NCBI GenBank assembly: GCA_022562055.1
Contig: JADFQA010000007.1
Location: 3,680 to 67,679, forward strand
From: Acidobacteriota bacterium
Lineage (GTDB): Bacteria; Actinomycetota; Acidimicrobiia; Spongiisociales; UBA5794
Reading direction: 5' to 3'
Length of the DNA stretch: 64,000 nucleotides
The notes under the pieces were generated by a model that saw only the letters and a list, made by a program, of their open reading frames with translations, made no database searches and had not been told where the DNA came from. How positions within the stretch are numbered: position 1 is the first letter of the stretch; each line of letters begins with the position of its first letter. Positions 11,446 through 28,276 of the stretch are shown piece after piece. The translations under genes were made by a program, and so were the position numbers.

Positions 11446-14400
11446 CTACATGTTGCGTCGGTACTGACCGCCGACGTTGTACAGCGCAGCGGAAATCTGT
11501 CCGAGTGAGCACACTTTTGTGGTCTCAAGCAACGACTCAAACACGTTGCTGCCGTGCAGCGCCGTCTCTTGAAGCTCAGCTAGTGCAGTGACGGAACTCG
11601 CTGCGTTGTGTGCGTGATAGTCGGCAAGCTGACTAATAAGTCGGTCCTTGTCCTCATCGGTCGACCGAATGATTTCTCCCGGCACCACAAACGGGCTGCC
11701 CGAATCTGATAGAAAGGTGTTGACTCCGATGATGGGGAACTCGCCCGACTCTTTGAGTTGCTCGTAGTACATCGATTCTTCTTGAATCTTGGTGCGCTGA
11801 TATTGGCTTTCCATCGCACCCAAAACGCCACCGCGTGCGGTCAAGTTATCAAACTCAGCCAGCACCGCTTCCTCGACGAGGTCTGTAAGGTCGTCGATGA
11901 TGAACGAGCCTTGGAGCGGGTTTTCGTTCATGGTCAAACCCAGCTCGCGGTTCACGATGAGTTGAATCGCAAGCGCTCGGCGCACGGATTCGACGGTCGG
12001 AGTCGTAATGGCCTCGTTGTAGGCGTTGGTGTGTAGCGAGTTGCAGTTGTCGTAGATCGCGTACAGGGCCTGGAGCGTGGTGCGGATGTCGTTGAAGTCA
12101 ATGTCCTGCGCATGCAAGGATCGCCCCGACGTCTGGATGTGGTATTTAAGTTTCTGTGACCGCTCGTTGCCGCCGTACTTCAGCTTGATCGCCTTGGCCC
12201 AAATGCGACGGGCAACACGTCCAATCACGGCATACTCGGGGTCGACGCCGTTTGAGAAGAAGAAGCTGAGATTCGGTGCGAAGTCGTCGATGTCGAGTCC
12301 GCGCGACAGGTAGTACTCGACAAACGTAAACCCGTTCGCCAGCGTGAAGGCAAGTTGTGAGATGGGGTTCGCACCCGCTTCGGCCATGTGATAACCAGAG
12401 ATCGAAACCGAGTAGAAATTTCGGATGTTGTTGGCAATGAAGTACTCCTGCACATCACCCATCATCCGCAGCGCAAACTCTGTCGAGAATATGCACGTGT
12501 TCTGCGCCTGATCCTCTTTGAGTATGTCGGCTTGCACCGTCCCGCGCACAGCAGCCAACGTATCTGACTTGATCTGTTCGTACACTTCCGCAGGCAGCAC
12601 CAAGTCTCCGGTCACGCCGAGAAGAAGAAGCCCCAGCCCGTCGCTTCCTTCCGGGAGGTCTCCCGAGTACGTTGGTGCGACTGTGCTGTGTAGATCGGCG
12701 ATCTTGCGCCGCGTTTCATCCACCAGGTCGTGCTGGGTGATGTAGCGCTCGCATTGCTGGTCGATCGCGGCATTGAGGTAGAACCCAAGAAGTATCGGCG
12801 CCGGACCATTGATCGTCATCGACACCGATGTTGATGGGTCGACGAGGTCGAAACCGCTGTAGAGCCGCTTCATGTCATCGAGGGTGGCGATCGACACACC
12901 AGAGTTGCCAACCTTGCCGTACACATCAGGGCGGGATTCGGGGTTCTGTCCGTACAGTGTCACAGAGTCGAATGCTGTGGAGAGCCGCTTTGCCGGCACA
13001 CCGAGTGACAAATAGTGGAAGCGGCGGTTGGTCTGCTCGGCGCTTCCTTCGCCGGCAAACATGCGTGTCGGATCTTCATCCTGCCGCTTGAATGGGAACA
13101 CCCCGGCCGCAAACGGGAATGCACCGGGGACGTTCTCATGGAGCAGCCACCGTAAACGGTCGCCGTGGCTCGAGAACCGAGGCAGAGACACTTTGGGGAT
13201 CCTGGTATGTGCGAGAGATTCTCCCGCGAGAGTCGCGGATATCTTGCGATCTCGCACGAGGTAGGTCAGCTCGGTGCCGGTGTAGGACCGCACAAGGTCC
13301 TCCCAACCCTCGAGCATGGCGGCGTTTTTTGGATCGAGTTCGGCGGTGAGCGCTGCTTGGACGGTGTCAAGCGCACTCTGGGCCGCCTCGTCTGAGACTT
13401 CGGTTAGCGCGACCTCAAGGCCCTGAATGCGGTCGGCTAACGTCGCCTGCTCGTCGACCCTTAGGCCGTACCCTCGGATTACCTCAGTGATTTCTGAGAG
13501 ATAGCGGACGCGCTCCGCAGGTACCACGGCGGCCCCCTGTGGAGGGGCTTCCACGAGCGGGCTCTCGATGTCGAACGAAGCGTTGGCCGCCCGACCGACA
13601 AGCTGCATCAGTTTCTCGAAAACCGTGTTCACCCCGGCGTCATTGAACTGGCTCGCAACCGTTGCATACACCGGGATCTCGTCGTCGGATTGTTCGAACA
13701 TCACGCGACTGCGCCGGTACTGCTTGCGAACATCTCTCACGGCGTCGAGTGCCCCGCGTTTGTCCGCCTTGTTGATGACGATGACGTCGGCGAAGTCGAT
13801 CATGTCGATCTTCTCAAGCTGGCTGGCGGCACCATATTCGGGTGTCATCACATACAGAGTGACGTCTGCGTGATCAACGATTTCGGTGTCCGACTGACCG
13901 ATCCCTGAGGTTTCGAGGATCACCAGATCGTATCCGGCCGCTTTGACAATGTTGATTGCGTCGTGGACGTGACGCGGCAGCGCAAGATTTGCCTGCCGTG
14001 TGGCGAGGGACCGCATGTAGCAGCGCTCATCACTGATGGCGTTCATACGAATGCGGTCCCCGAGCAAAGCCCCCCCGGTACGCCGTTTCGAGGGGTCGAC
14101 ACACAGCACCGCGACTGTTTTCTTGACATACGCAGATAGGAATCGACGGACGATTTCGTCGACCAGCGACGACTTGCCGGCGCCCCCTGTGCCGGTGATG
14201 CCAAGGACCGGTACTCCTGACTGCTCAGCCAGGCTCTCTATCACGGTGGACATGCCGACGAAATTGCTCGGAAGATTCTCCGCAATACTTATGACACGAG
14301 CGGTGATCGTCGGATTCGCCGTCGACAGGGGAGTGTCAGCAACGGAGTCGACCGATGGGCGTGCGACCTTGCGTGCCGCGGCGATCATGTCATCAACCAT

Positions 14401-14820
14401 TCCCTGGAGACCGAGGCGCCGTCCGTCGTCGGGCGAATACAACGTTGCAATGCCGTCGTTTGCGAGAGCCTTGACTTCGTCGGGCAGGATCGTGCCACCA
14501 CCACCGCCGAACACCTGTATGTGGTTGCCGCCTCCGTCGTTGAGCAATTCGCGAACGTACCTGAAGAACTCGTCGTGGCCACCCTGGTAGGACGTGATCG
14601 CGATGGCATGTGCGTCTTCCTGGAGGGCGGTCTGAACGATGTCGCGGGCCGTACGGTTGTGACCGAGATGGATAACCTCGACACCGGATGCCTGGAGAAT
14701 GCGCCGAAACATGTTGATCGAGGCGTCGTGCCCGTCAAACAGGGAGGTCGCGGTTACAAAGCGAAGCGGTGATCCTTTGGACTCTGGTTGTTTGACCTCG
14801 GTGGACTGTGTCTGAGTCAC
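11446..14820 (-). CDS. icmF: Fused isobutyryl-CoA mutase IcmF (B12-binding domain, MeaB-like G-protein domain, and mutase TIM-barrel domain)
   Basis: 1124 aa. N-terminal [10 protein letters not shown] cobalamin-binding motif, central [14 protein letters not shown]-loop with NKAD motif, and a C-terminal methylmalonyl-CoA-mutase-like catalytic domain. Confidence 0.9.
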
Positions 14821-17281: not shown

Positions 17282-17644
17282 CGTCGCCAGCCATCCGCGG
17301 CTCTCGCAAATATCCCACACTGGTCTCCGCAACTCCGGGGAGGGCCGCTGCATATCTGGCTGGATACGCCTCGCGGGATCGACGCGGACTCACTGCGAGA
17401 CGCGGTGCTTCGACAGGGTGTAGCGATCGTGGCGGGCAGACAATGGCACCCGAGTGACGCCCCCAGCTCGTTCATCCGGTTGAGCTACGCTGCCGTTACC
17501 ACACCTCTTGTCGAGGAGGGTGCGTACCCACTCGCACGAGCGATAGGGCCGGAGATTTGTCCTTGTCGTTCGGTGTTGGTCTATGTTTCGGGCGGGGTGT
17601 ATTCGCCTAGGCGGACGGTGATTGTGGCCCCACCATCGAGGTAG
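17282..17644 (+). pseudogene. C-terminal remnant of a PLP-dependent (class I/II, MocR-like) aminotransferase with no start codon or N-terminal domain
   Basis: The frame opens immediately after the stop of the preceding gene and reads ...GGPLHIWLDTPRGIDADSLRDAVLRQGVAIVAGRQWHPSDAPSSFIRLSYAAVTTPLVEEGAYPLARAI. This is typical of an aminotransferase C-terminus. No ATG appears until 17405, and the 3' end overlaps the convergent VanW gene. Confidence 0.5.
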
Positions 17645-19632
17645 CTGCCGCCAGCGGCGCTCTGGGTCTGCACGATGCCATTCTGTTCGGCGCTTGTAAC
17701 CACGATCGGGTCACCGACCGCAACTCCAAAGCCGGCCGCCGCAAACGTGGCCTGAGCGTTGGCGAATTCCATGCCGACAACCGACGGCACCAGCAGTGGA
17801 CAATCCTCTTCGCTGTCTGGCATGTTGCACGGATGTACCTCGATAATTTTCGTCCGGGGACGGTACGTCGCGGTGTCTTTTTCTTCAGTGACCGTACCGT
17901 CGGGAGCCGTGATAATGCGTGTGATCGTCACCGACCATCCGCCGAGGCCATTGCGCTTGATATGTTCTTCGCCGGGGGCGAGCGAGGCGTCGGGCTCGTA
18001 CTCGGTTTTCGGTTCAGTGAATGCGAATCGCCCCGACCTCTCGGCCTCGCATGTGACGCCGCCGGTGTTGCCATAGAACTGCACGGTGATCGAGGTCGAC
18101 GTGTACTGGGTCTTGATGATGAGGGCCGTCTCGGTGTTGTTACGCAGAATGAGATTCGGCGCCGGCCAAGAAATCGTCGCTTCACGGCCCTCGGGATAGC
18201 GCGAGAAATAGATCGAATGCGGAACATGTCTGATGTCCTCGTAACAACCGAAAAAGATCGCGTTGTAGAACGTAGTTGCGAACTGGCTGACGCCGCCGCC
18301 AATAACCTGTACTAGTTCACCACCCAAGATCATGCCGTCCGACAAGTAGCCCTTTTCAACAGTTCGTTCGCCGACTGCTACGTTGAGCGAATACTCTTCT
18401 CCGGGAAGGACGATGTTTCCGTCGACCGCCTCGGCGAAAAGCTGAATGTTGATAACGCGATTCTGCCCTGCCGGATGGTTGGTGGTGAACTCGCTCACCA
18501 GACCGACTTCGTCCATGGCTTCGGCATCTGCCGTTGTGAACGAAGCCGCCTCCCCTTCGGCAAATGGGAACTCGCCGATCCGCACGCCGGAAGACGCGGT
18601 GGCGAAAATGGCTTCAGCAACGAGGTCGATGTCGAGCGACGTCGATGGACGCGACGGGACGAGTACGACCGGGAATCCCTCGCCTTCGCCGACCTCGGCC
18701 TCCTCGTCGATGGTCCACTCAGCATCGCGAGCCTCCGAGCGCGCAGTCTCACGCAGTGGTTCGATGACGTTGACGAGTTTGTCTCTGTCAAATCCGAGGA
18801 CGATCCGCGGAGTTCCCAAAGTCACCACGTTCGATACGAATGCGTTGATGAGTTGCTGCGAGGTGATGACAAGCTCGATTTCGGGCTGCTCGGAACGGAG
18901 GGTGATTGGCCCGCCGATGAGCAAGTTCGCTTCGCTCACGGCCTTGTCAATATCGTTTCTGGTTAGTGAAGGCTGCACCTCAATTGTTGGAAGCCATGCG
19001 GTGTTTGTGCTTGGGTTCGTGAGGACGTTGGTGAGAATCGCTAATGCGGGGACACGGTCGATTCCCTCACCCGACACCGGGTACTCCGCCTTGGCGAATC
19101 CGCCAGCCATCACTACCGCCCCCTCGTATGCCGGGATGGAGATGGCGTCTTGCTGCCATTGGTCGATCTGTTGATCCAGAAGTACAGGATCGATGGTCAC
19201 CGCAACGTCAATCGTCCGAGTGTCGCCAAACGACGAAAACCAACCCAGTACTTGACCAATCAGACCGGACTCACGTCGTTGTAACAGTGCCTCTTCAACT
19301 ACTTCATCAGTGTTGAGGACGAGGTCGACCGACTTTGGGTCAAGCTGGAACGTAGTGTCCTTGACGGTAATCAAGGCCGGCTCGTCGCGTAGAGCAGCCT
19401 CGTACTCAAGAACAGCAACTGTTGCATCCTCTGGACCGAATCCGCCTACCTCGATTCCCGCAATTGTGACATTGCGAGCGATTTCCCCGTTGCGCGACGA
19501 TATGTCGGCCACGATCACCAGTAAGGGGAACAGCACAACTACGACGAGTAGGTATTTCAGGTTGTTTCGTAATTTCGCGATTACGCGTGCAGCCCCTGCC
19601 GGTGTCGGTGGAAATCGGCGCTCACTCACCAT
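17581..19632 (-). CDS. VanW family protein with N-terminal TM anchor and C-terminal PASTA domain
   Basis: TM LKYLLVVVVLFPLLVIV. VanW core motifs (PGEEYSLNVAVGERTVEKGY, GGGVSQFATTFYNA). C-terminal about 70 aa matching PASTA (VPSVVGMEFANAQATFAAAGFGVAVGDPIVV...). Confidence 0.75.
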   Translation of the reverse strand: MVSERRFPPTPAGAARVIAKLRNNLKYLLVVVVLFPLLVIVADISSRNGEIARNVTIAGIEVGGFGPEDATVAVLEYEAALRDEPALITVKDTTFQLDPKSVDLVLNTDEVVEEALLQRRESGLIGQVLGWFSSFGDTRTIDVAVTIDPVLLDQQIDQWQQDAISIPAYEGAVVMAGGFAKAEYPVSGEGIDRVPALAILTNVLTNPSTNTAWLPTIEVQPSLTRNDIDKAVSEANLLIGGPITLRSEQPEIELVITSQQLINAFVSNVVTLGTPRIVLGFDRDKLVNVIEPLRETARSEARDAEWTIDEEAEVGEGEGFPVVLVPSRPSTSLDIDLVAEAIFATASSGVRIGEFPFAEGEAASFTTADAEAMDEVGLVSEFTTNHPAGQNRVINIQLFAEAVDGNIVLPGEEYSLNVAVGERTVEKGYLSDGMILGGELVQVIGGGVSQFATTFYNAIFFGCYEDIRHVPHSIYFSRYPEGREATISWPAPNLILRNNTETALIIKTQYTSTSITVQFYGNTGGVTCEAERSGRFAFTEPKTEYEPDASLAPGEEHIKRNGLGGWSVTITRIITAPDGTVTEEKDTATYRPRTKIIEVHPCNMPDSEEDCPLLVPSVVGMEFANAQATFAAAGFGVAVGDPIVVTSAEQNGIVQTQSAAGGSYLDGGATITVRLGEYTPPET

Positions 19633-19709
19633 GTGTATGCCGACACCACAGTCTAAATGGTTTCTGAAATTGCACAATATCGCATGTGTGTCGTGCGATA
19701 CGATGGGGC

Positions 19710-20532: not shown

Positions 20533-21393
20533 ATGGCAACCTTGATGGCGATCCACGCCCACCCCGATGACGAGAGTTCCAAGGGCGCCGCGACCGTTGC
20601 TCGGTACGCTGACGCAGGGGTTCGATGTCTGCTTATTACGGCCACGGGAGGTGAGGCCGGCGACATCCTCAACCCCGCAATGGACAACGATGAAGTCCGC
20701 GACAATCTCGCTGAAATTCGTCGTAAAGAACTTGAGGAGGCAGCTCGTATCATCGGATACGACGATGTGTTCATGCTCGGTTATCGCGACTCGGGCATGG
20801 TCGATTCCCCGGACAACGCCAACCCTGCAGCTTTCGTGAACGCTGACTACGACGAAGTTCTCGAGAAGGTCGTCACGTTGGTGCGCACGCATCGTCCAGA
20901 TGTATTCCTTGGGTACGACGCGCACGAGTTCTACCCGCATCCTGACCACTTGCGAATACACGCCATCACGACCGACATCATGGCGGCTGCTGCGGACGCG
21001 AAATGGTTTCCGGATGCGGGCGAGCCGTGGAAGATCCGGCGGCTGGTGGCGTCCCTGTTTTCGCGGCGAGGCATGTTGGCCATCCACGAGGTACTCCTCG
21101 AACGTGATGGAGAATCCCCCTTTACCGAGTGGATCGACAGAATTCGAGGAGAAGATGTGCCCGACGTCAGGACGCTTGCTGTCGAAGTAAGCGCCACCAT
21201 GCAACGCGCACGGGATGCTCTGCGGGCGCACGCCACCCAGGTCGATCCGGACGGATTTTGGTTTCAGGTGCCGATCAAGCTTGCAAAAGAGGTGTACCCG
21301 TACGAGGACTTTCAGATTCTCCTTTCTAACCCTCCGATGACAGACGGGGTAGGCGACCTCTTCGCTGGGCTCACCGGCGGGACTTCCGGGTAG
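20533..21393 (+). CDS. mca: Mycothiol S-conjugate amidase
   Basis: LMAIHAHPDDESSKGAATVARYADAGVRCLLITATGGEAGDILNP, later YPHPDHLRIH and ALRAHATQVDP. These closely resemble the remembered Mca (Rv1082) sequence; 286 aa. Confidence 0.8.
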   Translation: MATLMAIHAHPDDESSKGAATVARYADAGVRCLLITATGGEAGDILNPAMDNDEVRDNLAEIRRKELEEAARIIGYDDVFMLGYRDSGMVDSPDNANPAAFVNADYDEVLEKVVTLVRTHRPDVFLGYDAHEFYPHPDHLRIHAITTDIMAAAADAKWFPDAGEPWKIRRLVASLFSRRGMLAIHEVLLERDGESPFTEWIDRIRGEDVPDVRTLAVEVSATMQRARDALRAHATQVDPDGFWFQVPIKLAKEVYPYEDFQILLSNPPMTDGVGDLFAGLTGGTSG

Positions 21394-21565: not shown

Positions 21566-23056
21566 ATGGAGATCGAATCGGGGGCCAACAACAGCATCAA
21601 AGCGGAGCTCGGTTTCCTCGCTGCACCGCTTGAAGGTGTCGGCATCCACCCGGATGTCGAACGGAGGCGCAGGTCCGCGGTCGGTGAATACATGATGCGC
21701 CGCCATGCGGCCCACCGCCAAGTCCCTCTCGTGGTTGTTGTCGGACTCACCGGAACAGGTGTCTCGACGGTCGTCAACGCGTTGTGCGGCGCGGATGTCG
21801 CCACCACAGGAGTGCTCAGGCCGACCACGACCAGTCCGCTCATCGTTGTGACGGCAGACAATCTCGATGCTCCGGTCACAGGACTCGCTGTTGCGATGGA
21901 CGGTGCGCCACGGGTCGTCGAGATGGCTTCCGTTCCGTTCACCATCATCGACGCACCGGCGTGGGAGATGGGTGTCGGCGGCGAGGTCTCCGCTCGGCTT
22001 CTGCCCCTTGCTGATGTCGTTGTGTGTGTCACGACACCTGAGCGGTACGCAGATGCCGGAGTGTGGCGGCTCATCGAGGCCGCCAGAGACGCTGGGGTGG
22101 CAGTCGTCGTAGTGATGAACATGCCGACCGACGGTCCGCTCGACGACCTGAAGGGTCGCATGGCCCTGAGGTACGGTGCGCTTGCACCACCGGTCGTTGC
22201 TGGAATCGCATCTGATGATCTCGTGGCTGCGATTACGGTGGCCGCTTCTTCGCACCGCGTTCACAGCATCGATGGTGCGCGGTCGAGGTTGCGGGAAGTG
22301 CTCAAGACAATGGAGCCGATCATTGAGGAGTCCGCGGCCCTTCTTGAGACCGCCAGGGTCATCTACGCCGACCATTCACGGGCTTTGGCGGATCGGCTAA
22401 AGGCCGGCGAATTTGTCCCTGCAGCTGAGTCGCAGACGCTGACTGATGCGTCGTTCTCGCTCGCATCAGTCATCACTAGCCGCATCGGCGCCGCTGCCGA
22501 GCAGACGGCGACGGCGTGGGCCGCGACGAAGTTGGGAGAAGCCGCGCTCGTGTCCGAAACTGTTGGATTGTGGCGCCATGGACCCGCCGTTTCCGCGTTG
22601 TCGCAGCGGCATGTGGCTGAGACCATCGGCGACATACGGATGGTTGTCCGTGACATGACGAAGTGGCGTCGGCCCTCTGAGCGAAAGCTGTCGCTGGCGT
22701 CAGACTATCTGTGGAGGGCTGCTCTGGGACGCGACGTTGCCAACTGGACAATGAAGCGCGGTTTCGGAAAGCGCCGCGCCAGAGCCGTGGATAGGGTCCG
22801 GAGTTTGTTCTCCGAGGCGGTAACGCAAGTCTTTAGTGCGGACCGGCAGCGTTTTATCGACCGCTTGCATCACATTCCGACGGCCGCCCGGCTTTGGTCA
22901 CTGCACGAATCATTCGAGGACCGTCCAGACGTGGTTCGGGACCGTGGCGAATCTGAGTCTTCGATCAGCATCGATCTGGCAGACGGTTCCGACATCTTGG
23001 TCGACGAACACGGGACCACTCCGGATTCCGTGCATGCGAAGGGTGCTGATGCGTGA
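21566..23056 (+). CDS. P-loop GTPase-family protein with degenerate G1 and G4 motifs (likely pseudo-GTPase), first gene of a coupled pair
   Basis: G-domain architecture, but Walker A reads GLTGTGVST (Lys replaced by Val) and G4 reads NMPTD instead of NKxD. Long helical C-terminal region; 496 aa. Confidence 0.7.
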   Translation: MEIESGANNSIKAELGFLAAPLEGVGIHPDVERRRRSAVGEYMMRRHAAHRQVPLVVVVGLTGTGVSTVVNALCGADVATTGVLRPTTTSPLIVVTADNLDAPVTGLAVAMDGAPRVVEMASVPFTIIDAPAWEMGVGGEVSARLLPLADVVVCVTTPERYADAGVWRLIEAARDAGVAVVVVMNMPTDGPLDDLKGRMALRYGALAPPVVAGIASDDLVAAITVAASSHRVHSIDGARSRLREVLKTMEPIIEESAALLETARVIYADHSRALADRLKAGEFVPAAESQTLTDASFSLASVITSRIGAAAEQTATAWAATKLGEAALVSETVGLWRHGPAVSALSQRHVAETIGDIRMVVRDMTKWRRPSERKLSLASDYLWRAALGRDVANWTMKRGFGKRRARAVDRVRSLFSEAVTQVFSADRQRFIDRLHHIPTAARLWSLHESFEDRPDVVRDRGESESSISIDLADGSDILVDEHGTTPDSVHAKGADA

Positions 23057-24227
23057 CGTTGATCAACTAATCGATGCCCTTGATAGGGTGGTCGTTACGG
23101 CCCCCGGATTCGTCGACGAAGGTCTCGCCATTGCGGCGGATTCGGCTGCTTTGCAACTCCGGCGCCGGACCGGCTACCTAGGTGAAACCCTTGTCCTTGC
23201 GATTGTCGGTGGTACTGGGGCGGGAAAGTCGAGCCTGCTAAATGCGATTGCTGGGGAGCCAATCGCCTCGGTGAGCGACATTCGCCCGCACACCCACGAG
23301 CCGCTCGCATGGATACCCGAATCCGCGGGTGGTGGACTCACCGCACTCCTCGACGATCTCGAGGTGCATGTCCGTAGACCACAGAACCTATTTGATTCTC
23401 TGTGCATCATTGATCTTCCAGACTTTGACTCGTACGCCGAGGCGCACCGTGAGGTGGTCGAGCGGTTGCTGCCGCTGGTGGACGTCGTTGCGTGGCTGGT
23501 CGACCCGGTCAAGTACGCGGATCCGTCCCTGCATAGTGACTTCCTCAAACCGGTCCATCAACACGGCGCACAGTTTGTGTTTGTCATGAACAAGATGGAT
23601 CTGCTTTCCCCCGAGAGCCGCGTGGCGGTCGTTGACGACTTTGTCCGTCTGCTCGGTGAAGATGGCTTCGAGGAGACGTCCGTCATAGCTATTGCGGCCT
23701 CGCCGACCGAGGGAGAGCCGTTCGGTATCGATGAGTTGACGGCTCACCTTCGTCTCCGGCTGACTGACAAGCGTCTCGCTCTGAACAAACTCGTGCACGA
23801 GGTGCGGGATCTCGTTCGCCGAATCGGGATCGATGCAAGTGTGTGGAACGGGTTTGGTGAGTCTTTCGATGAGCGGTGGCGGGTTACCCGAGACAAGGTA
23901 GCGACCGGGCTTGCCGAACCCGTCGGCTCGCCGGAGCGGGAGGATGCGGCTTGTCGGTTGTCGGACTTTGTTGCGGCGTTAGCGCAGTCTGCAGGCGACC
24001 ACGCAGCCGAGGTACGAAAGGCGGTGCCGCACACGGTCATCGATCAAGCGGTCAAAGATGTTGCTGCCAACGCCATGACCACAAGTCTGACCGCGCGGAG
24101 AGACCATCTCGACGCGAAGATCGGAAGCCCGCTCCGCGATTGGGCGCATCGTCGGGCTGTGTTCGGCGCTACTGTCGCATTCGCGGGCGTGAGTGCATAT
24201 GCAGTGGAGGACAGATTGTGGCGTTGA
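23049..24227 (+). CDS. Canonical P-loop GTPase (dynamin/HSR1-like) with hydrophobic C-terminal segment, second gene of the coupled pair
   Basis: ATGCGTGA start/stop overlap with the upstream gene. Walker A GGTGAGKSSLLNAI, G3 IIDLPD, G4 VMNKMD. C-terminal AVFGATVAFAGVSAYAV is hydrophobic. Confidence 0.7.
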   Translation: MRDVDQLIDALDRVVVTAPGFVDEGLAIAADSAALQLRRRTGYLGETLVLAIVGGTGAGKSSLLNAIAGEPIASVSDIRPHTHEPLAWIPESAGGGLTALLDDLEVHVRRPQNLFDSLCIIDLPDFDSYAEAHREVVERLLPLVDVVAWLVDPVKYADPSLHSDFLKPVHQHGAQFVFVMNKMDLLSPESRVAVVDDFVRLLGEDGFEETSVIAIAASPTEGEPFGIDELTAHLRLRLTDKRLALNKLVHEVRDLVRRIGIDASVWNGFGESFDERWRVTRDKVATGLAEPVGSPEREDAACRLSDFVAALAQSAGDHAAEVRKAVPHTVIDQAVKDVAANAMTTSLTARRDHLDAKIGSPLRDWAHRRAVFGATVAFAGVSAYAVEDRLWR

Positions 24228-25108
24228 CGAACCTGGAGATTTTCGGATATGAGATCTCCGATTCACTATCGGATCAGATCGGCCCGGCGGTTGCAACACT
24301 GTCTTGGGTAGTGGTGTCTTTTGTTGCATGGAAGGTTATAAAACGGATTGGCGACTCCAGCGTGACGCGGCTGACTACGCGTGCCGAGAAGCTGACGGCG
24401 ATCGAGGCTGAGGACCGTAAGCAGCGTGTCGAAACGCTCTGGTCGGCGGTGAGGGCTGTCATGTTGTCCGTTGTCGTCATCATTGTCTTTTTGGGGATAC
24501 TCAACGTATGGGGTGTCAACACGGCGCCGTTCCTGGCCATCGGATCGATTATGGGGTTGGCTGTCGGTTTCGGCGCCCAAGACTTTGTCAAAGACGTGAT
24601 CGCTGGGTTCCTGATCCTCGCCGAAGATCAGTACTCGCTCGGCGATGTCGTCAAAATCGCCGACGTCAGCGGCACGGTGAAGGAGATCACGCTTCGTTCG
24701 ACCATCTTGCGAGACCTCGACGGGAGGGTTCACTACGTGCCAAACGGATCGATATCGGTGGCCACGAACTACACCCAGGAGTACAGCCAGGTGGTTATCG
24801 ACGTTGGGTTTGGGTACGGCGAAGACGTCGACAAGATCATTCCCGTCATTCAAGACGAACTCGATCGGTTCGCGGCTGACGAAAAGTGGGCGTCGGCGTT
24901 TATCGATCCGCCCGAGATCCTCGGCGTCCAAGAACTCGGCGACTCCTCAGTGTCCGTCCGGTGTCTCTTGCGGGTCGCACCAGAGTTCCGCTGGTCGTCG
25001 CGGAGGGAGTTCCTGCGTCGCATCAAGATGCGCTTCGATGCCGACGACATCGAAATTCCGTTCCCGTACGTGACGATTGCGCGACCTCCAACCAAGAGCA
25101 ACGACTAG
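24218..25108 (+). CDS. Small-conductance mechanosensitive channel (MscS family)
   Basis: GTG start overlaps the upstream GTPase stop by 10 nt. Three TM helices, then MscS TM3/beta-domain signature (IGSIMGLAVGFGAQDFVKDVIAGFLIL, GDVVKI..VSGTVKEITLRSTILRDLDGRVHYVPNG). Confidence 0.8.
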   Translation: MALTNLEIFGYEISDSLSDQIGPAVATLSWVVVSFVAWKVIKRIGDSSVTRLTTRAEKLTAIEAEDRKQRVETLWSAVRAVMLSVVVIIVFLGILNVWGVNTAPFLAIGSIMGLAVGFGAQDFVKDVIAGFLILAEDQYSLGDVVKIADVSGTVKEITLRSTILRDLDGRVHYVPNGSISVATNYTQEYSQVVIDVGFGYGEDVDKIIPVIQDELDRFAADEKWASAFIDPPEILGVQELGDSSVSVRCLLRVAPEFRWSSRREFLRRIKMRFDADDIEIPFPYVTIARPPTKSND

Positions 25109-25126: not shown

Positions 25127-25750
25127 TTGGCTAGTTCGACGCGGTTGCGCGGTATCGAGGTCGTTGTTTTCGACCTGGGCGGTGTCCTGGTACGGCTCGG
25201 CTCCTACACCGATGTGGTTGGTGAGGACTCGATGTCGGCTGATGAGTTTTGGTCCATGTGGCTGTCGAGTCCTGCCGTTCGCCGTCTTGACGGCGGCGTA
25301 TCGAGTGTCAACGAATTCGGCGAGGAGATCGTGAAGGAACTTGGCTTGCCGTTTGCCCCTCAAGAACTGATACAAAGGTTCCTTGAATGGCCTAAGGGGC
25401 TGTTTGATGGGGCGTACGAAGTGGTTCAGCGCGTGCGAGAGTCTCGCACGGTGGCGGTTCTCAGCAACATCAACGTCTTGCACTGGACTTCACAGCGCGA
25501 TCACGAGACGATCTCGCGGATGTTTGATGTGCAGTTTCTCTCTTACGAAATCGGACTGGTCAAACCCGACTTGACCGTGTTCCACCATGTCATCAACGAA
25601 CTCGGTGTCGAGCCGGATGCGATCTTCTTCCTCGACGACAATCAGGCCAACGTCAGCGCAGCTAGGGGAGTTGGGATCGATGCGGTCCTCGTGAACAGCG
25701 TTGACCAGATGCGGCGCGCCCTGGTCGACCGCGGCGTGCTGCACCTCTAA
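25127..25750 (+). CDS. HAD superfamily hydrolase (subfamily IA-like)
   Basis: Motif I VVVFDLGGVLV and motif IV FFLDDNQANVSAARGVGIDAV; 207 aa. Confidence 0.75.
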   Translation: MASSTRLRGIEVVVFDLGGVLVRLGSYTDVVGEDSMSADEFWSMWLSSPAVRRLDGGVSSVNEFGEEIVKELGLPFAPQELIQRFLEWPKGLFDGAYEVVQRVRESRTVAVLSNINVLHWTSQRDHETISRMFDVQFLSYEIGLVKPDLTVFHHVINELGVEPDAIFFLDDNQANVSAARGVGIDAVLVNSVDQMRRALVDRGVLHL

Positions 25751-25769: not shown

Positions 25770-27089
25770 TCAGGGCGACGTGCTCTTTGGGGTCGAGGTT
25801 TCGCGGCGGACCTGGAATCTTTCGTAGACGTAGCTAAGGCTTGCGCCTTTGTAGGTGGCGGTGACTTCCCAGCACCCGTTGATACGAGCGTCGATGCCCG
25901 CAATCATCAACTGACCGCCTTCGGGTGTGCCCGCGTTGGTGCCCGGCTGGTTTGACACGATGGTCTCGCCGTCTAGGACATCGATACGGCGCCACGTCAC
26001 GGCGATCTCGGGGCTTGGTTCCGTGGGCCAGCCTGCAAACCTGACGCTCCACCATAGGCTCTTCCGTGGCTGGTATTCGAATCCTTGGCGGGGCAGAATT
26101 GTCCACAGATCGGCGGTTCCGTACCACAGGTCGAATTCCCAGAGGGGGTCTGCGTAATACGGTTCGGGCGCCGAGAACCCGGGGTCTGGGGGTGCGGTCG
26201 ATATGCAAATCCCTTGGGTTCGGTCACCTTCGGGAGCACCAGCGGCGAGCGATGACACGATATTCCAGGTTTGCTCCCATTGGCCTGGTGACACCGCATC
26301 ACCAGCCACAAGCACGACGTCAACAACATTGTCGTTGAGGACCCACAGCGCGCGTTTTGTCGTGAGTCCATCGGGCTTCGAGCAACCTTCCGAATCCAAG
26401 CGTGCGCGCTCGAAATCGTTGATCGGTGTCGATGAACGGGGCCGTGGGGAGAGCGGTGCCTCAATCGTATCGTTTGCGGTTGCTGTGTCTCGCGACAAAC
26501 CGATGTAGGGACCCACGACTGTGATCGAGATCAGGGTGTCGGTGGCGCCGACCCGGAGCATATCGTCGCCGACTACCGCGAGGCATTGTGATGTCTCTGC
26601 TGTCAGTGGAAATGTGGCGATCTGCACCATTGCACTGTCGGGTCCCAGCCCCGCGGTGTCCCGCCGAAACCAATCCGATGGGTACGCAATGGACCATCGA
26701 GGCGGTTCCTGTTTGCTCTGCTGAGCACTTGACGCAGTCGCAACAGTGACCGGCGACGTGAGGTCCTGCGGGTCGCCGCTATTGAGACTCGTGGCAACGG
26801 CGATGAACACGAAGATGCTGACGACCGCCGCACCGACTAGCAGCGATCGTCGGTGTCTTCGTTTCGGACGGTCGCCTCCGAGCGTAGGTGGTTGAAGATT
26901 CGAGGCCCCGGACACAAGAGTCCGTACCGCGTGGTCTCGGGCTTCATCGAAACCGGGAACGGGCGAGGTTGATCGCGACTCGTCGCACCCAAGCGTTCGG
27001 TGAGTCCATTTGCTCCACGCTGTTCCAGTCGCGATGGGCGCGGACGAAGGCCTCCTGGGCGAGGTCCTCAGCGGCCCAGCGGTTACCAC
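25770..27089 (-). CDS. Membrane-anchored protein with large extracytoplasmic domain (anti-sigma-factor-like topology); start uncertain
   Basis: Single TM (RRSLLVGAAVVSIFVFIAVA) after a short cytoplasmic N-terminus. The annotated 5' end overlaps the sigma-like ORF by 145 nt in another frame. Confidence 0.45.
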   Translation of the reverse strand: MVTAGPLRTSPRRPSSAPIATGTAWSKWTHRTLGCDESRSTSPVPGFDEARDHAVRTLVSGASNLQPPTLGGDRPKRRHRRSLLVGAAVVSIFVFIAVATSLNSGDPQDLTSPVTVATASSAQQSKQEPPRWSIAYPSDWFRRDTAGLGPDSAMVQIATFPLTAETSQCLAVVGDDMLRVGATDTLISITVVGPYIGLSRDTATANDTIEAPLSPRPRSSTPINDFERARLDSEGCSKPDGLTTKRALWVLNDNVVDVVLVAGDAVSPGQWEQTWNIVSSLAAGAPEGDRTQGICISTAPPDPGFSAPEPYYADPLWEFDLWYGTADLWTILPRQGFEYQPRKSLWWSVRFAGWPTEPSPEIAVTWRRIDVLDGETIVSNQPGTNAGTPEGGQLMIAGIDARINGCWEVTATYKGASLSYVYERFQVRRETSTPKSTSP

Positions 27090-27192
27090 TCAGCGCCCAG
27101 GTCAACGCAACCACCGATGAGTAGGTGTCCCGATAGAACACCGCAAACGTGCTGGGCACCTGTACCGGGAGTGGCCGCACGGAGTCGTCCAT
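26944..27192 (-). CDS. ECF-type sigma-70 region 2-only protein (no region 4)
   Basis: 82 aa containing FYRDTYSSVVALTWALSGNRWAAEDLAQEAFVRAHRDW...PNAWVRRVAINLARSRFR (ECF sigma region 2.1-2.4). The stop follows immediately. No region-4 HTH is encoded downstream in any frame. Confidence 0.55.
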   Translation of the reverse strand: MDDSVRPLPVQVPSTFAVFYRDTYSSVVALTWALSGNRWAAEDLAQEAFVRAHRDWNSVEQMDSPNAWVRRVAINLARSRFR

Positions 27193-27358: not shown

Positions 27359-28276
27359 TCACCGAGGCACGAGCATCGAGAGGGCGTCGTGGTCCGTGGA
27401 GATAACGACTCGTGAAGCTGCCCCCAGCAGCTCGCCGTCGGCCTGCACCCGGGTTACTGGATCTGCCTCGACGACGAGGTGCTCGGCGTTGTCGAGGATC
27501 GTTATTCCGTCAATGCCGTCGAGCGGTTTGTGGATTGCCGCTCTTCCAAGAAGATCGGCGCCGGTGAGCGGGGACAGCCGTTCAATAACCAGCGCAGTCG
27601 TGCCCACGAACGGTCCGGGTCCGAATTTGAGAGGCGCGGTCCCGAAGTACGTGTAGAGATGGTGAAGCTGCACGAGGACCGTCACTGCGTCAAGCGTTGT
27701 GTCTCCGCTCGTTACCCGCAGGTTTGGAGACTTCGAGCGGTAGGGTCCAATAAGTTTTGCAGCGGCTGTCTTCGCGTAGTGCATCGACCCGAAAAAGAGT
27801 TTGGCGCTCGGGCGCTGTTCTGCGACTTCGACGACGTCAGCATCAAATCCCACGCCGACGTTGAACGTTGCCAGCGATGTCCGCTCCTTGCCGTCAACGG
27901 TTGCGACAATACGAGCGATGGGACGTCCTGCGGGAATGGCGCTGGCGAGGGCCCGTGCGGCTTTTCTCGGTTTCTTGGAAACACCGAGGATTCGGGCGAG
28001 CACATTTGTTGTCCCCACCGGGATTATACCGAGTGCGGTCCCGGTGTCCACGATGCCGTTGGCGACTCGGTTAACCACACCGTCACCGCCCATGGCAACC
28101 ACTGCAAATACTTCCTGGTGCGCCGCGTCAATAGCGGCTTCGGTGGCGTCCTCCGCCGACTCCGGCCAAACCCGGGTCACGTCGAAGGATTCTCCGAGGA
28201 TTGTCACGACGTCGCGGAAGGCAGAACCGGTGAATCCCGAGGACGCTGGGTTGGCGATGAGGACGACTTGGCGCAT
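27359..28276 (-). CDS. Diacylglycerol kinase catalytic-domain family lipid kinase (YegS/BmrU-like)
   Basis: MRQVVLIANPASSG N-terminus and AMGGDGVVNRVANG motif; 305 aa. Confidence 0.8.
   Translation of the reverse strand: MRQVVLIANPASSGFTGSAFRDVVTILGESFDVTRVWPESAEDATEAAIDAAHQEVFAVVAMGGDGVVNRVANGIVDTGTALGIIPVGTTNVLARILGVSKKPRKAARALASAIPAGRPIARIVATVDGKERTSLATFNVGVGFDADVVEVAEQRPSAKLFFGSMHYAKTAAAKLIGPYRSKSPNLRVTSGDTTLDAVTVLVQLHHLYTYFGTAPLKFGPGPFVGTTALVIERLSPLTGADLLGRAAIHKPLDGIDGITILDNAEHLVVEADPVTRVQADGELLGAASRVVISTDHDALSMLVPR

Follow-up and report, generated by a model that had tools for sequence, protein, structure and literature searches.

The locus analyzed here lies in the window, i.e., the whole 64,000-nucleotide stretch of DNA that was under study, which comes from an Acidimicrobiia bacterium. 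A run of three genes on the + strand, referred to below as G1, G2, and the MscS gene, was confirmed in it, and all coordinates and motifs were reproduced from the sequence. The features of this run and of its surroundings are as follows:

20533..21393, + strand: mycothiol conjugate amidase Mca (TIGR03446, 279 bits vs. a cut-off of 277), followed by a 172-nt gap before G1
21566..23056, + strand: G1, an ORF encoding a DynA-like dynamin-family paralogue of 496 aa, catalytically degenerate
21743..21769, + strand: degenerate P-loop of G1, GLTGTGVST in translation, with the Walker A lysine replaced by valine (V66)
23049..24227, + strand: G2, a DynB-like dynamin-family GTPase of 392 aa, without TM hairpin
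23049..23056, + strand: 8-nt overlap of the G1 stop and the G2 start, ATGCGTGA (G2 ATG at 23049, G1 TGA at 23054-23056)
23208..23234, + strand: P-loop of G2, GGTGAGKSS in translation, with lysine K60 (GGTGxGKSS is invariant in alignment A1)
23589..23600, + strand: G4 motif of G2, NKMD in translation (N181 and D184 do not vary in A1)
24205..24227, + strand: GGAGGA, MscS GTG (24218), and G2 TGA (24225-24227), with a 10-nt overlap
24218..25108, + strand: MscS-type small-conductance mechanosensitive channel of 296 aa (Pfam MS_channel_1st, _2nd, and _3rd)
25127..25750, + strand: HAD-IA hydrolase (Pfam Hydrolase, HAD_2), with a TTG start at 25127, 18 nt 3' of the MscS stop
27359..28276, - strand: DAGK-family lipid kinase (Pfam DAGK_cat, 79 bits), convergent

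The initial annotation had described the three genes as linked by overlapping stop and start codons, and the overlaps of 8 and 10 nt bear this out. A Shine-Dalgarno-like GAAGGG (23038-23043) is found 5 nt 5' of the G2 ATG, and a second one, GGAGGA (24205-24210), lies 7 nt 5' of the MscS GTG, inside the G2 coding sequence. G1 and G2 share 4 or 8 nt at their junction in almost every Acidimicrobiia locus, a recurrence that makes the overlap more than a product of chance, and sister MAGs whose G2 is 70% identical display the same G1-G2-MscS order with identical overlaps. The translational coupling initially proposed for the three genes can be counted as supported. The HAD hydrolase gene does follow the channel gene, as had been remarked, but is absent between MscS and DAGK in sister loci L081-L085 and L088: It is a neighbor, outside the conserved unit. 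At the 5' side, Mca, whose likely start is M68 of its ORF, precedes G1 in the window, in sister loci L081-L083 and L087-L088, and in seven more distant Acidimicrobiia loci. At the 3' side, almost every Acidimicrobiia locus has DAGK in opposite orientation following G2 or MscS, and this gene forms the conserved downstream boundary of a PDDEXK-Mca-G1-G2-(MscS)-DAGK block that is syntenic within the class. The locus, with Mca, DAGK, and pyruvate kinase nearby, is a stable core-genome block, retained throughout a class, and not a variable island.

G2 harbors an intact dynamin-type G domain, in which the GGTGAGKSS, RPHT, DLPD, and NKMD motifs are all invariant in A1. It passes the gathering score of the Pfam Dynamin_N model (41.1 bits vs. 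27), and the best Foldseek matches of its modelled structure are EHD2/4, Cj-DLP1/2, BDLP, IniA, and mitofusin, with E about 1e-9. Helices are found N- and C-terminal of the G domain in both G1 and G2, and the model predicts that those preceding and following the G domain of G2 fold into a mitofusin/BDLP-type helical bundle (neck/HB1). A Kyte-Doolittle scan predicted no TM segment in the window's G2, which lacks a predicted tip TM or paddle; the “hydrophobic C-terminal segment” initially reported in this protein likewise does not qualify as a predicted TM segment and is modelled instead as part of a long C-terminal helix, residues 347-391. Mitofusin is usually drawn with a TM hairpin at the tip of its bundle, and a hairpin is found at the tip of the helical bundle in G2 homologues too: Those of Actinomycetes and of some Acidimicrobiia are ~500-560 aa long and carry a two-TM hairpin, present in all full-length Actinomycetes homologues but in only some from Acidimicrobiia, which begins ~356 residues past the P-loop lysine and is inserted exactly at the position of the window G2's short loop (~residues 341-346).

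These results bear on the public names of G1/G2 proteins, “50S ribosome-binding GTPase,” “EngB,” and “ABC transporter,” according to which the pair would consist of Era/EngA/EngB-type ribosome-assembly GTPases or ABC-type ATPases. Such names find an echo in Pfam matches to MMR_HSR1 (31 bits) and ABC_tran (PF00005, 23.9 bits, below its cut-off of 25) and in best PDB sequence matches to EngA and CFTR. However, these matches span only ~35 residues around the P-loop, whereas the whole-protein fold resembles mitofusin, IniA, and EHD and the homologues carry a TM hairpin. NCBIfam scores are likewise far below threshold for Era (35 bits vs. 237), Der (27.5 vs. 307), and YsxC (19.5 vs. 124) and concern residues 45-88 only, when the ABC match is confined to residues 46-78, i.e., the P-loop. 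We consequently rejected these identities, which we regard as highly improbable, and consider the names misleading. The same very low credence is given to a LeoABC-like “dynamin” anti-phage defence system, despite weak PADLOC matches of G2 to LeoA (21.1 bits, E 3e-5) and LeoBC (13.4 bits) and despite the reported contribution of Bacillus subtilis DynA to phage defence (PMC12998192): The G2 scores are marginal, G1 has no PADLOC match, and the core-genome context described above is not that of a variable island. As for IniA/IniC, also rejected, IniA is absent among the profile-versus-PDB sequence matches, the similarity being structural only, and no iniB-like gene was found at the locus.

G1 and G2 are paralogs, aligned by hhalign with a probability of 99.8% and E 1e-28 over 199 columns. 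Together with the Foldseek matches and the Dynamin_N assignment of G2, this upholds the early idea of a dynamin-like pairing. The pair, with G1 upstream and G2 downstream, is found in essentially all of ~80 actinobacterial genome loci, and in ~60 loci the best match of G1 is the pair's upstream member. Actinomycetes pairs have two intact P-loops and a G2 with the two-TM hairpin. The window's G1 scores under the Dynamin_N gathering score (19.7 bits vs. 27) and lacks the intact set of G-domain motifs (G1 motif, switch-I Thr, G3, and G4), reading GLTGTGVST and NMPT; its single-sequence model (pLDDT 43.5) is too poor for a useful reading of the fold. One degenerate G domain next to a canonical one (GGTGAGKSS and NKMD in G2) is thus what the window encodes, as first noted, but the term “pseudo-GTPase” suits only the window's small clade. 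Indeed, GLTG[TS]GVST is kept in L081-L085, L087, and L088 (the K-to-V change being counted in five related loci), when the Walker A lysine is present in G1 of all other loci except L031, which has arginine, and ~70 other upstream partners retain GxxGxGKS[T]. The window's clade has lost the G2 TM hairpin, the G1 Walker A lysine, and the G1 hydrophobic segment, and represents a minimal form of the pair.

Could such a G1 simply be a decaying pseudogene? The lost Walker A lysine, the change of DxPDxDS to DAPAWE, the scores under Pfam cut-offs, and a dN ~1.5-1.8x that of G2 would all agree with decay. Yet, the G1 ORF is intact, with 496-498 aa, in four sequences representing three lineages with mutual identities of 54-70%, the sister loci retain the 8-nt coupling to G2, and invariant positions are many, including G60, G63, G65, S67, RPTT, and D129. 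Because dN/dS of G1 within the clade is 0.10-0.14 and the K-to-V change is retained across related loci, we hold decay to be a very remote prospect and consider G1 a maintained partner of G2.

Which family, then, does the pair belong to? In Streptomyces, dynA lies upstream of dynB (vnz_12110/vnz_12105; SCO2685/SCO2684; P-loop lysines K74 and K129), DynA being soluble, without TM segment, and DynB having two TM segments, which a deletion of aa 468-517 removes. DynA and DynB localize to the FtsZ ring and bind SepX, SsgB, and SepF2, and DynB orthologs are reported from a wide range of Actinobacteria, unicellular members included (PMC8748795). The primers used to construct the DynA K74A mutant encode STGAGKSTLVNSLVG, a 15-mer found without mismatch in eight upstream (G1-type) ORFs of the loci, and those for DynB K129A encode TVIAIAGATGSGKSTLFNALAGVPVSE, 22/27 identical to the Streptomyces family member P0399. 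In translation, the qPCR primers for sco2684 give GLVLIDL and VLHERY, each an exact family G2 motif, with ~49 residues between the two. Four primer-encoded peptides from two genes are thus collinear on the correct member of the pair, three of them exactly. Because these peptides match the long forms of the pair, we consider that G1 and G2 probably are the Acidimicrobiia version of the paired dynamin-like proteins (DLPs) of Actinomycetota, with the Streptomyces DynA/DynB family as the most likely identity, an assignment based on ~70 residues of primer-encoded peptide, in which P-loop peptides are only moderately family-specific, together with gene order and architecture. No curated NCBIfam model covers G1 or G2. 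The initial annotation had held that protein sizes and the lack of TM segments set the pair apart from DynA/DynB; the hairpin-bearing homologues of ~500-560 aa and the primer-peptide matches contradict this, the mismatch being attributable to lineage-specific loss. Of the characterized systems with which the pair could have coincided, IniA/IniC finds no match at sequence level, and DynA/DynB is the most likely counterpart. That the pair instead forms a distinct, uncharacterized dynamin-superfamily lineage of Actinomycetota, DynA/DynB-like in architecture without being orthologous, seems unlikely to us, although DynA/DynB were compared through primer-encoded peptides rather than at full length, generic P-loops (EngA, ABC proteins) match the DynB P-loop peptide too, a peptide-fingerprint search yielded no more than an incomplete Streptomyces protein with other gene surroundings, and the S. 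venezuelae termini are found in 0 of the best 150 representatives. The collinearity of the four peptides, the agreement of gene order and TM-hairpin position with DynA/DynB, and the wide distribution of DynB orthologs (PMC8748795) all weigh against such a separate origin.

The third gene had been recognized as an MscS channel, and rightly so: Its TM2/3 (PF21088, 24.6 bits vs. a cut-off of 23.1), beta (PF00924, 71.6 vs. 20.2), and C-terminal (PF21082, 36.6 vs. 21) domains all pass, and NCBIfam MscS models match it with E 3e-54, yet under their equivalog cut-offs. Of ~37 informative Acidimicrobiia-type loci, 24-25, scattered across the clade as a whole, have an MscS ortholog directly 3' of G2 on the same strand; the GTPase-GTPase-MscS order is conserved across about two-thirds of the informative loci of Acidimicrobiia, as against 0 Actinomycetes loci. 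Among the 20 MscS-linked loci scored, 15 have a spacer between G2 and MscS of -17 to +45 nt, an estimate with the start codon chosen by homology. The channel gene dropped out on at least five occasions in Acidimicrobiia while the G1/G2 pair stayed, which, along with its absence next to the pair in Actinomycetes, implies that any MscS link is dispensable. TM-less pairs without adjacent MscS exist (L001-L007, L011), and hairpin loss does not correlate cleanly with MscS presence. These losses, this lack of correlation, and the synteny of the entire block in the class leave a chance only a little short of even that MscS is adjacent through inherited gene order, sharing transcription with the GTPase pair but having no functional or physical relation to it. 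On the other side stand the shared strand with an overlap or a spacer of ≤45 nt in most linked loci, the position of the MscS Shine-Dalgarno within the G2 coding sequence, and the divergence of the MscS-linked lineages, whose G2 are only 33-45% identical, since gene order normally decays at such a distance unless it is selected. The initial annotation did not recognize the arrangement as one described before, and we likewise found no description of an operon joining a dynamin-like pair and MscS in the searchable literature.

G1 and G2 would form a heterotypic complex in which only G2 hydrolyzes GTP and G1 acts as its structural or regulatory partner. Co-transcription and translational coupling of G1, G2, and MscS would ensure that the three proteins are made together. 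The pair may act at the cytoplasmic membrane, remodelling the septum or the membrane or contributing to repair, with MscS beside it as a tension-release valve; the operon would then be a module for membrane stress or division. A bolder possibility, which we consider improbable, is that the Acidimicrobiia pair and MscS constitute one physical machine, with a direct link from the sensing of membrane tension to septum closure or to the remodelling of the membrane; a TM-less heterodimer, of which only one subunit burns GTP, would then have MscS as its receptor in the membrane, or would gate or position the channel.

To our knowledge, bacterial DLPs almost always come in pairs. In this regard, the window's pair offers a natural experiment on pairing: The catalytic lysine is gone in one member and the anchors in both, yet purifying selection and tight coupling persist. 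If our assignment is right, the DynA/DynB family extends to the deep-branching and mostly uncultured Acidimicrobiia. The putative small soluble heterodimer (392 + 496 aa) would be easier to handle in structural and biochemical work than full-length BDLPs, and the class-wide operonic MscS link hints at a connection of DLPs with membrane tension. Overall, the pair most likely belongs to the known DynA/DynB-type family, in a half-dead, TM-less form and in an operon with MscS.

Compared with known systems, the window's channel shares with E. coli-type MscS (PF00924) the three-domain architecture of TM2/3, beta, and C-terminal domains but its gene takes third place in an operon of dynamin-like GTPases. 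The mitofusin/Fzo1 minimal GTPase-HB1 constructs (PDB 6jfk, 5gom, 9kfd) are eukaryotic, with ~10% sequence identity to the window protein, and are engineered truncations, whereas the latter is naturally “mini.” Mycobacterial IniA/IniC (PDB 6j72, 6j73) are likewise an actinobacterial DLP pair tied to envelope stress, but IniA, at 640 aa, possesses a trunk and a loop that interacts with lipids. Campylobacter jejuni DLP1/DLP2 (PDB 5owv, 5oxf) are also encoded by adjacent heterotypic genes, whose operon includes a third gene related to the envelope, and resemble the window's proteins through weak sequence matches to both chains (E 5e-4 and 9e-3) and structural matches; they differ in their 600-730 aa, their full neck, trunk, and paddle, and their two canonical G domains. 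The closest likeness is to Streptomyces DynA/DynB, a divisome-associated paralogous pair with a dynamin-type G domain and helical bundle and the soluble member upstream, just as G1 precedes G2 in the window and all loci. The window adds an MscS gene to the operon, in an Acidimicrobiia host; its G2 of 392 aa lacks the hairpin that DynB has at aa 468-517, and its G1 has V66 in place of the DynA P-loop lysine, while G2 keeps K60. Such a naturally half-dead pair matches recent work in Streptomyces, in which a single intact P-loop proved sufficient: A K-to-A change in either DynA or DynB leaves function in place, and function is lost only when both are mutated.

The three genes described by the initial annotation as joined through overlapping stop and start codons are indeed so arranged: G1 (the upstream G protein), G2 (the downstream GTPase) and an MscS gene follow one another on the forward strand, with overlaps of 8 and 10 nt that can be read directly from the sequence:

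21566-23056, + strand: G1, ORF of 496 aa
23049-23056, + strand: G1/G2 overlap ATGCGTGA, 8 nt
23049-24227, + strand: G2, ORF of 392 aa
24218-24227, + strand: G2/MscS overlap, 10 nt (GTG at 24218, TGA at 24225-24227)
24218-25108, + strand: MscS, ORF of 296 aa with a GTG start

A Shine-Dalgarno-like GAAGGG lies inside G1, 5 nt ahead of the G2 ATG, and a Shine-Dalgarno-like GGAGGA inside G2, 7 nt ahead of the MscS GTG; the three genes may be carried on one transcript and translationally coupled. The assignment of the third gene to the MscS channels also stands, the protein scoring above cut-off for all three Pfam MscS domains.

With regard to the two G proteins, G2 passes the cut-off of the Pfam Dynamin_N family (41.1 bits) and carries the GGTGAGKSS and NKMD motifs of a canonical GTPase, as first noticed, when G1 only reaches MMR_HSR1 and Dynamin_N, both below threshold. 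The first G domain had been called degenerate, and G1 does present GLTGTGVST at the site of the expected P-loop lysine, such that one P-loop of the pair is intact and the other lysine-less. No NCBIfam family covers G1, G2 or their long forms (G2-type homologues with a two-TM hairpin), the matches being limited to the P-loop and far below cut-off. Since the G1 and G2 profiles align with an hhalign probability of 99.8% (E 1e-28, 199 columns over the G domain), the two proteins are, at the level of profile homology, paralogues. The AlphaFold2 model of G2, built from an alignment of 18 homologues, is confident (pLDDT 87.6): a pair of N-terminal helices precedes the alpha/beta G domain, after which come ~165 C-terminal residues of further helices. 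Its top PDB matches in Foldseek are the membrane-remodelling EHD2/4, Cj-DLP1/2, BDLP, IniA, mitofusin and IRG proteins. The predicted fold and these matches make G2 a naturally minimal dynamin-like protein, composed of a G domain and a helical bundle. The hydrophobic C-terminal segment initially attributed to G2 corresponds to a conserved C-terminal helix but not to a transmembrane segment. The single-sequence model of G1 (pLDDT 43.5) is too poor for use.

Public names of G2 homologues include "ABC transporter", "EngB" and "50S ribosome-binding GTPase"; as such names rest on the P-loop alone, we rejected an identity as ribosome GTPase or ABC ATPase. A reading of the pair as a defence system was likewise rejected, given marginal PADLOC scores and a stable core-genome block.

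The family comprises 3256 representatives (50% identity) at E < 1e-3, and a genome scan retrieved 80 loci from Acidimicrobiia MAGs and cultured Actinomycetes, including Cellulomonas, Isoptericola, Microbispora, Actinomadura and Nonomuraea. In essentially every one of these loci a G1-type gene lies immediately 5' of a G2-type gene, and in Acidimicrobiia the two genes nearly always overlap, by 4 or 8 nt. G2 homologues of Actinomycetes are about 480-560 aa long and harbor a two-TM hairpin that lies ~356-423 residues past the P-loop lysine and leaves a tail of ~54 residues. At the position of this hairpin, the window G2 shows a clean alignment gap, which falls on the G2 model in the loop at ~341-346, between the last two helices; the hydrophobic segments of the long-form relatives are missing from both window proteins. 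The initial annotation had set the pair apart from DynA/DynB on the grounds of size and TM absence, an objection that these long forms and this gap do not support.

Several loci depart from the common layout. Seven Cellulomonas loci (L040, L041, L043, L045, L052, L056 and L058) carry two tandem DynA/DynB-like pairs, ~4 kb apart and in the same orientation, the second of which has GATGSGKSS, as do an Isoptericola protein (L053) and the DynB of S. venezuelae. Very long, acidic, low-complexity N-terminal extensions are found in DynB-like proteins of up to 1483 aa (loci L055, L057 (Actinocorallia), and proteins P0249, P0251 and P0253). In one Acidimicrobiia clade (L027-L036), G2 is only ~300 aa long and most of the C-terminal bundle is gone, with MscS still downstream of it.

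In Streptomyces, dynB lies downstream of dynA; DynB, which recruits DynA, has two TM segments as its anchor, and the P-loop lysines are K74 in DynA and K129 in DynB. DynB orthologues are widespread in Actinobacteria, unicellular species included (PMC8748795). Our comparison with this pair used ~70 residues of peptide decoded from published supplementary primer tables. The DynA(K74A) primers encode STGAG[K]STLVNSLVG, a 15-mer present without mismatch in eight upstream ORFs of the collected loci, and the DynB(K129A) primers encode TVIAIAGATGSG[K]STLFNALAGVPVSE, identical at 22 of 27 positions to the Streptomyces G2-family member P0399. The sco2684 qPCR primers encode GLVLIDL and VLHERY, which exactly match the family motifs GLVLxDLPDHDS (the G3 motif) and ADAxLHxRY, at a distance of ~49 residues that would give an amplicon of plausible size, 147 bp. 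Finally, the DynB delta-TM construct deletes aa 468-517, and thus starts at K129 + 339 residues, near the family K-to-TM spacing. Taken from these peptide matches, the long-form pairs are very probably DynA/DynB orthologues, and, given that orthology, the window pair would therefore be their acidimicrobial branch.

The termini of S. venezuelae DynA/DynB are found in none of the best 150 of the 3256 representatives, and the profile search for Streptomyces members returned only Streptosporangiales among the 120 matches listed. A peptide-fingerprint query recovered a single, partial Streptomyces protein adjoining an MFS gene, which is probably a paralogue. In Streptomyces sp. NPDC057273 (L086, 10001-10241), the contig ends within a DynB-like gene that overlaps the stop codon of a gene for an MFS transporter; because genes for DAHP synthase, isochorismatase and PPTase lie nearby, it may be a paralogue within a biosynthetic cluster and not dynB itself.

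The loss of the P-loop lysine in G1 has a narrow distribution. The K-to-V P-loop GLTG[TS]GVST, together with D[AT]PAWE in place of DxPDxDS, is confined to one small clade made of the window and its relatives (L081-L083, L084/L085, L087 and L088), with G1 54-57% identical to that of the window; elsewhere the upstream partner retains GxxGxGKS[T], except in L031, where the lysine is an arginine (GPSGSGRSF). A first metagenome scan with G1 alone as query gave no match, and a second, with an alignment as query, gave two further clade members. A decaying G1 pseudogene could be envisaged. However, in all four complete G1 sequences, from three lineages 54-70% identical, the ORF is intact, at 496-498 aa; dN/dS is 0.10-0.14 for G1, 0.07-0.08 for G2 and 0.04-0.10 for MscS (rough ratios, as dS is saturated); and the P-loop glycines and serine, RPTT, the G3 aspartate and many more residues are invariant. 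We therefore rejected decay. G1 and G2 could form a heterotypic complex in which G2 alone would hydrolyze GTP and G1 would act as scaffold or regulator. A naturally half-dead pair would fit, by analogy, with a bioRxiv study reporting that Streptomyces tolerates a K-to-A change in either DynA or DynB and that function is lost only when both are mutated.

The order of two G proteins followed by MscS proved conserved in Acidimicrobiia but absent from Actinomycetes (0 of ~40 loci with MscS next to the pair). Of the ~37 Acidimicrobiia-type loci whose sequence extends far enough past G2, there are 24-25 in which G2 is immediately followed by an MscS orthologue on its own strand (phmmer E 1e-35 to 1e-82 against the window MscS). 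Of 20 MscS-linked loci that were scored, 15 have an estimated spacer of -17 to +45 nt, with start codons picked by homology; the remainder are start misassignments or a locus with an inserted gene (L024). MscS-linked loci occur throughout the Acidimicrobiia clade of the G2 tree, in TM-bearing and TM-less forms, with several independent losses of the adjacency, and the block PDDEXK-Mca-G1-G2-(MscS)-DAGK(-) is syntenic across the class. Given this class-wide spread and synteny with repeated losses, the MscS operon is an ancient feature that the class has conserved, yet a dispensable one. It might be supposed that MscS is the obligatory anchor of TM-less pairs; but TM loss and MscS presence show no clean correlation, L001-L007 and L011 being TM-less without MscS and L013, L014 and L018-L020 TM-bearing with it, and this idea was therefore rejected.

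Around this block, the window has the following further genes:

11446-14820, - strand: B12-binding, MeaB GTPase and methylmalonyl-CoA mutase fusion, 1124 aa, resembling the fused isobutyryl-CoA mutase IcmF
17581-19677, - strand: VanW-PASTA-PG_binding_4 protein, 698 aa
25770-27089, - strand: one-TM protein without Pfam match, 439-aa ORF overlapping the next
26944-27192, - strand: ECF sigma-70 region-2-like N-terminus, 82-aa ORF

The VanW-PASTA-PG_binding_4 gene is conserved in sister MAGs, upstream of PDDEXK-Mca-G1-G2. In sister loci, MscS is followed by DAGK with nothing between; the HAD-IA hydrolase gene, which starts 18 nt past the window MscS as roughly noted before, is absent there, and it is a window-only insertion along with the TM protein and the truncated ECF sigma fragment. 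Region 4 of the latter is absent in every frame, and 25770-27192 looks like a truncated ECF sigma factor with an anti-sigma-like protein.

By analogy with DynAB, IniA, B. subtilis DynA and Cj-DLP1/2, the pair may act at the cytoplasmic membrane, at the division site or in membrane repair or remodelling, and co-expression with a tension-release channel could make the operon a membrane-stress or division module. What appears new here is the operonic, class-wide MscS: a literature search combining BDLP and mechanosensitive channel found no description of such an operon, in agreement with the initial impression. As for the pair, IniA in the PDB is matched by neither the G1 nor the G2 family profile and is distinct from this family by sequence, and the G2 profile weakly matches both chains of Cj-DLP. 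Judged by its homologues, the window system is not a new kind, and is most likely a minimal, TM-less, half-dead form of the actinobacterial DynA/DynB-type pair.
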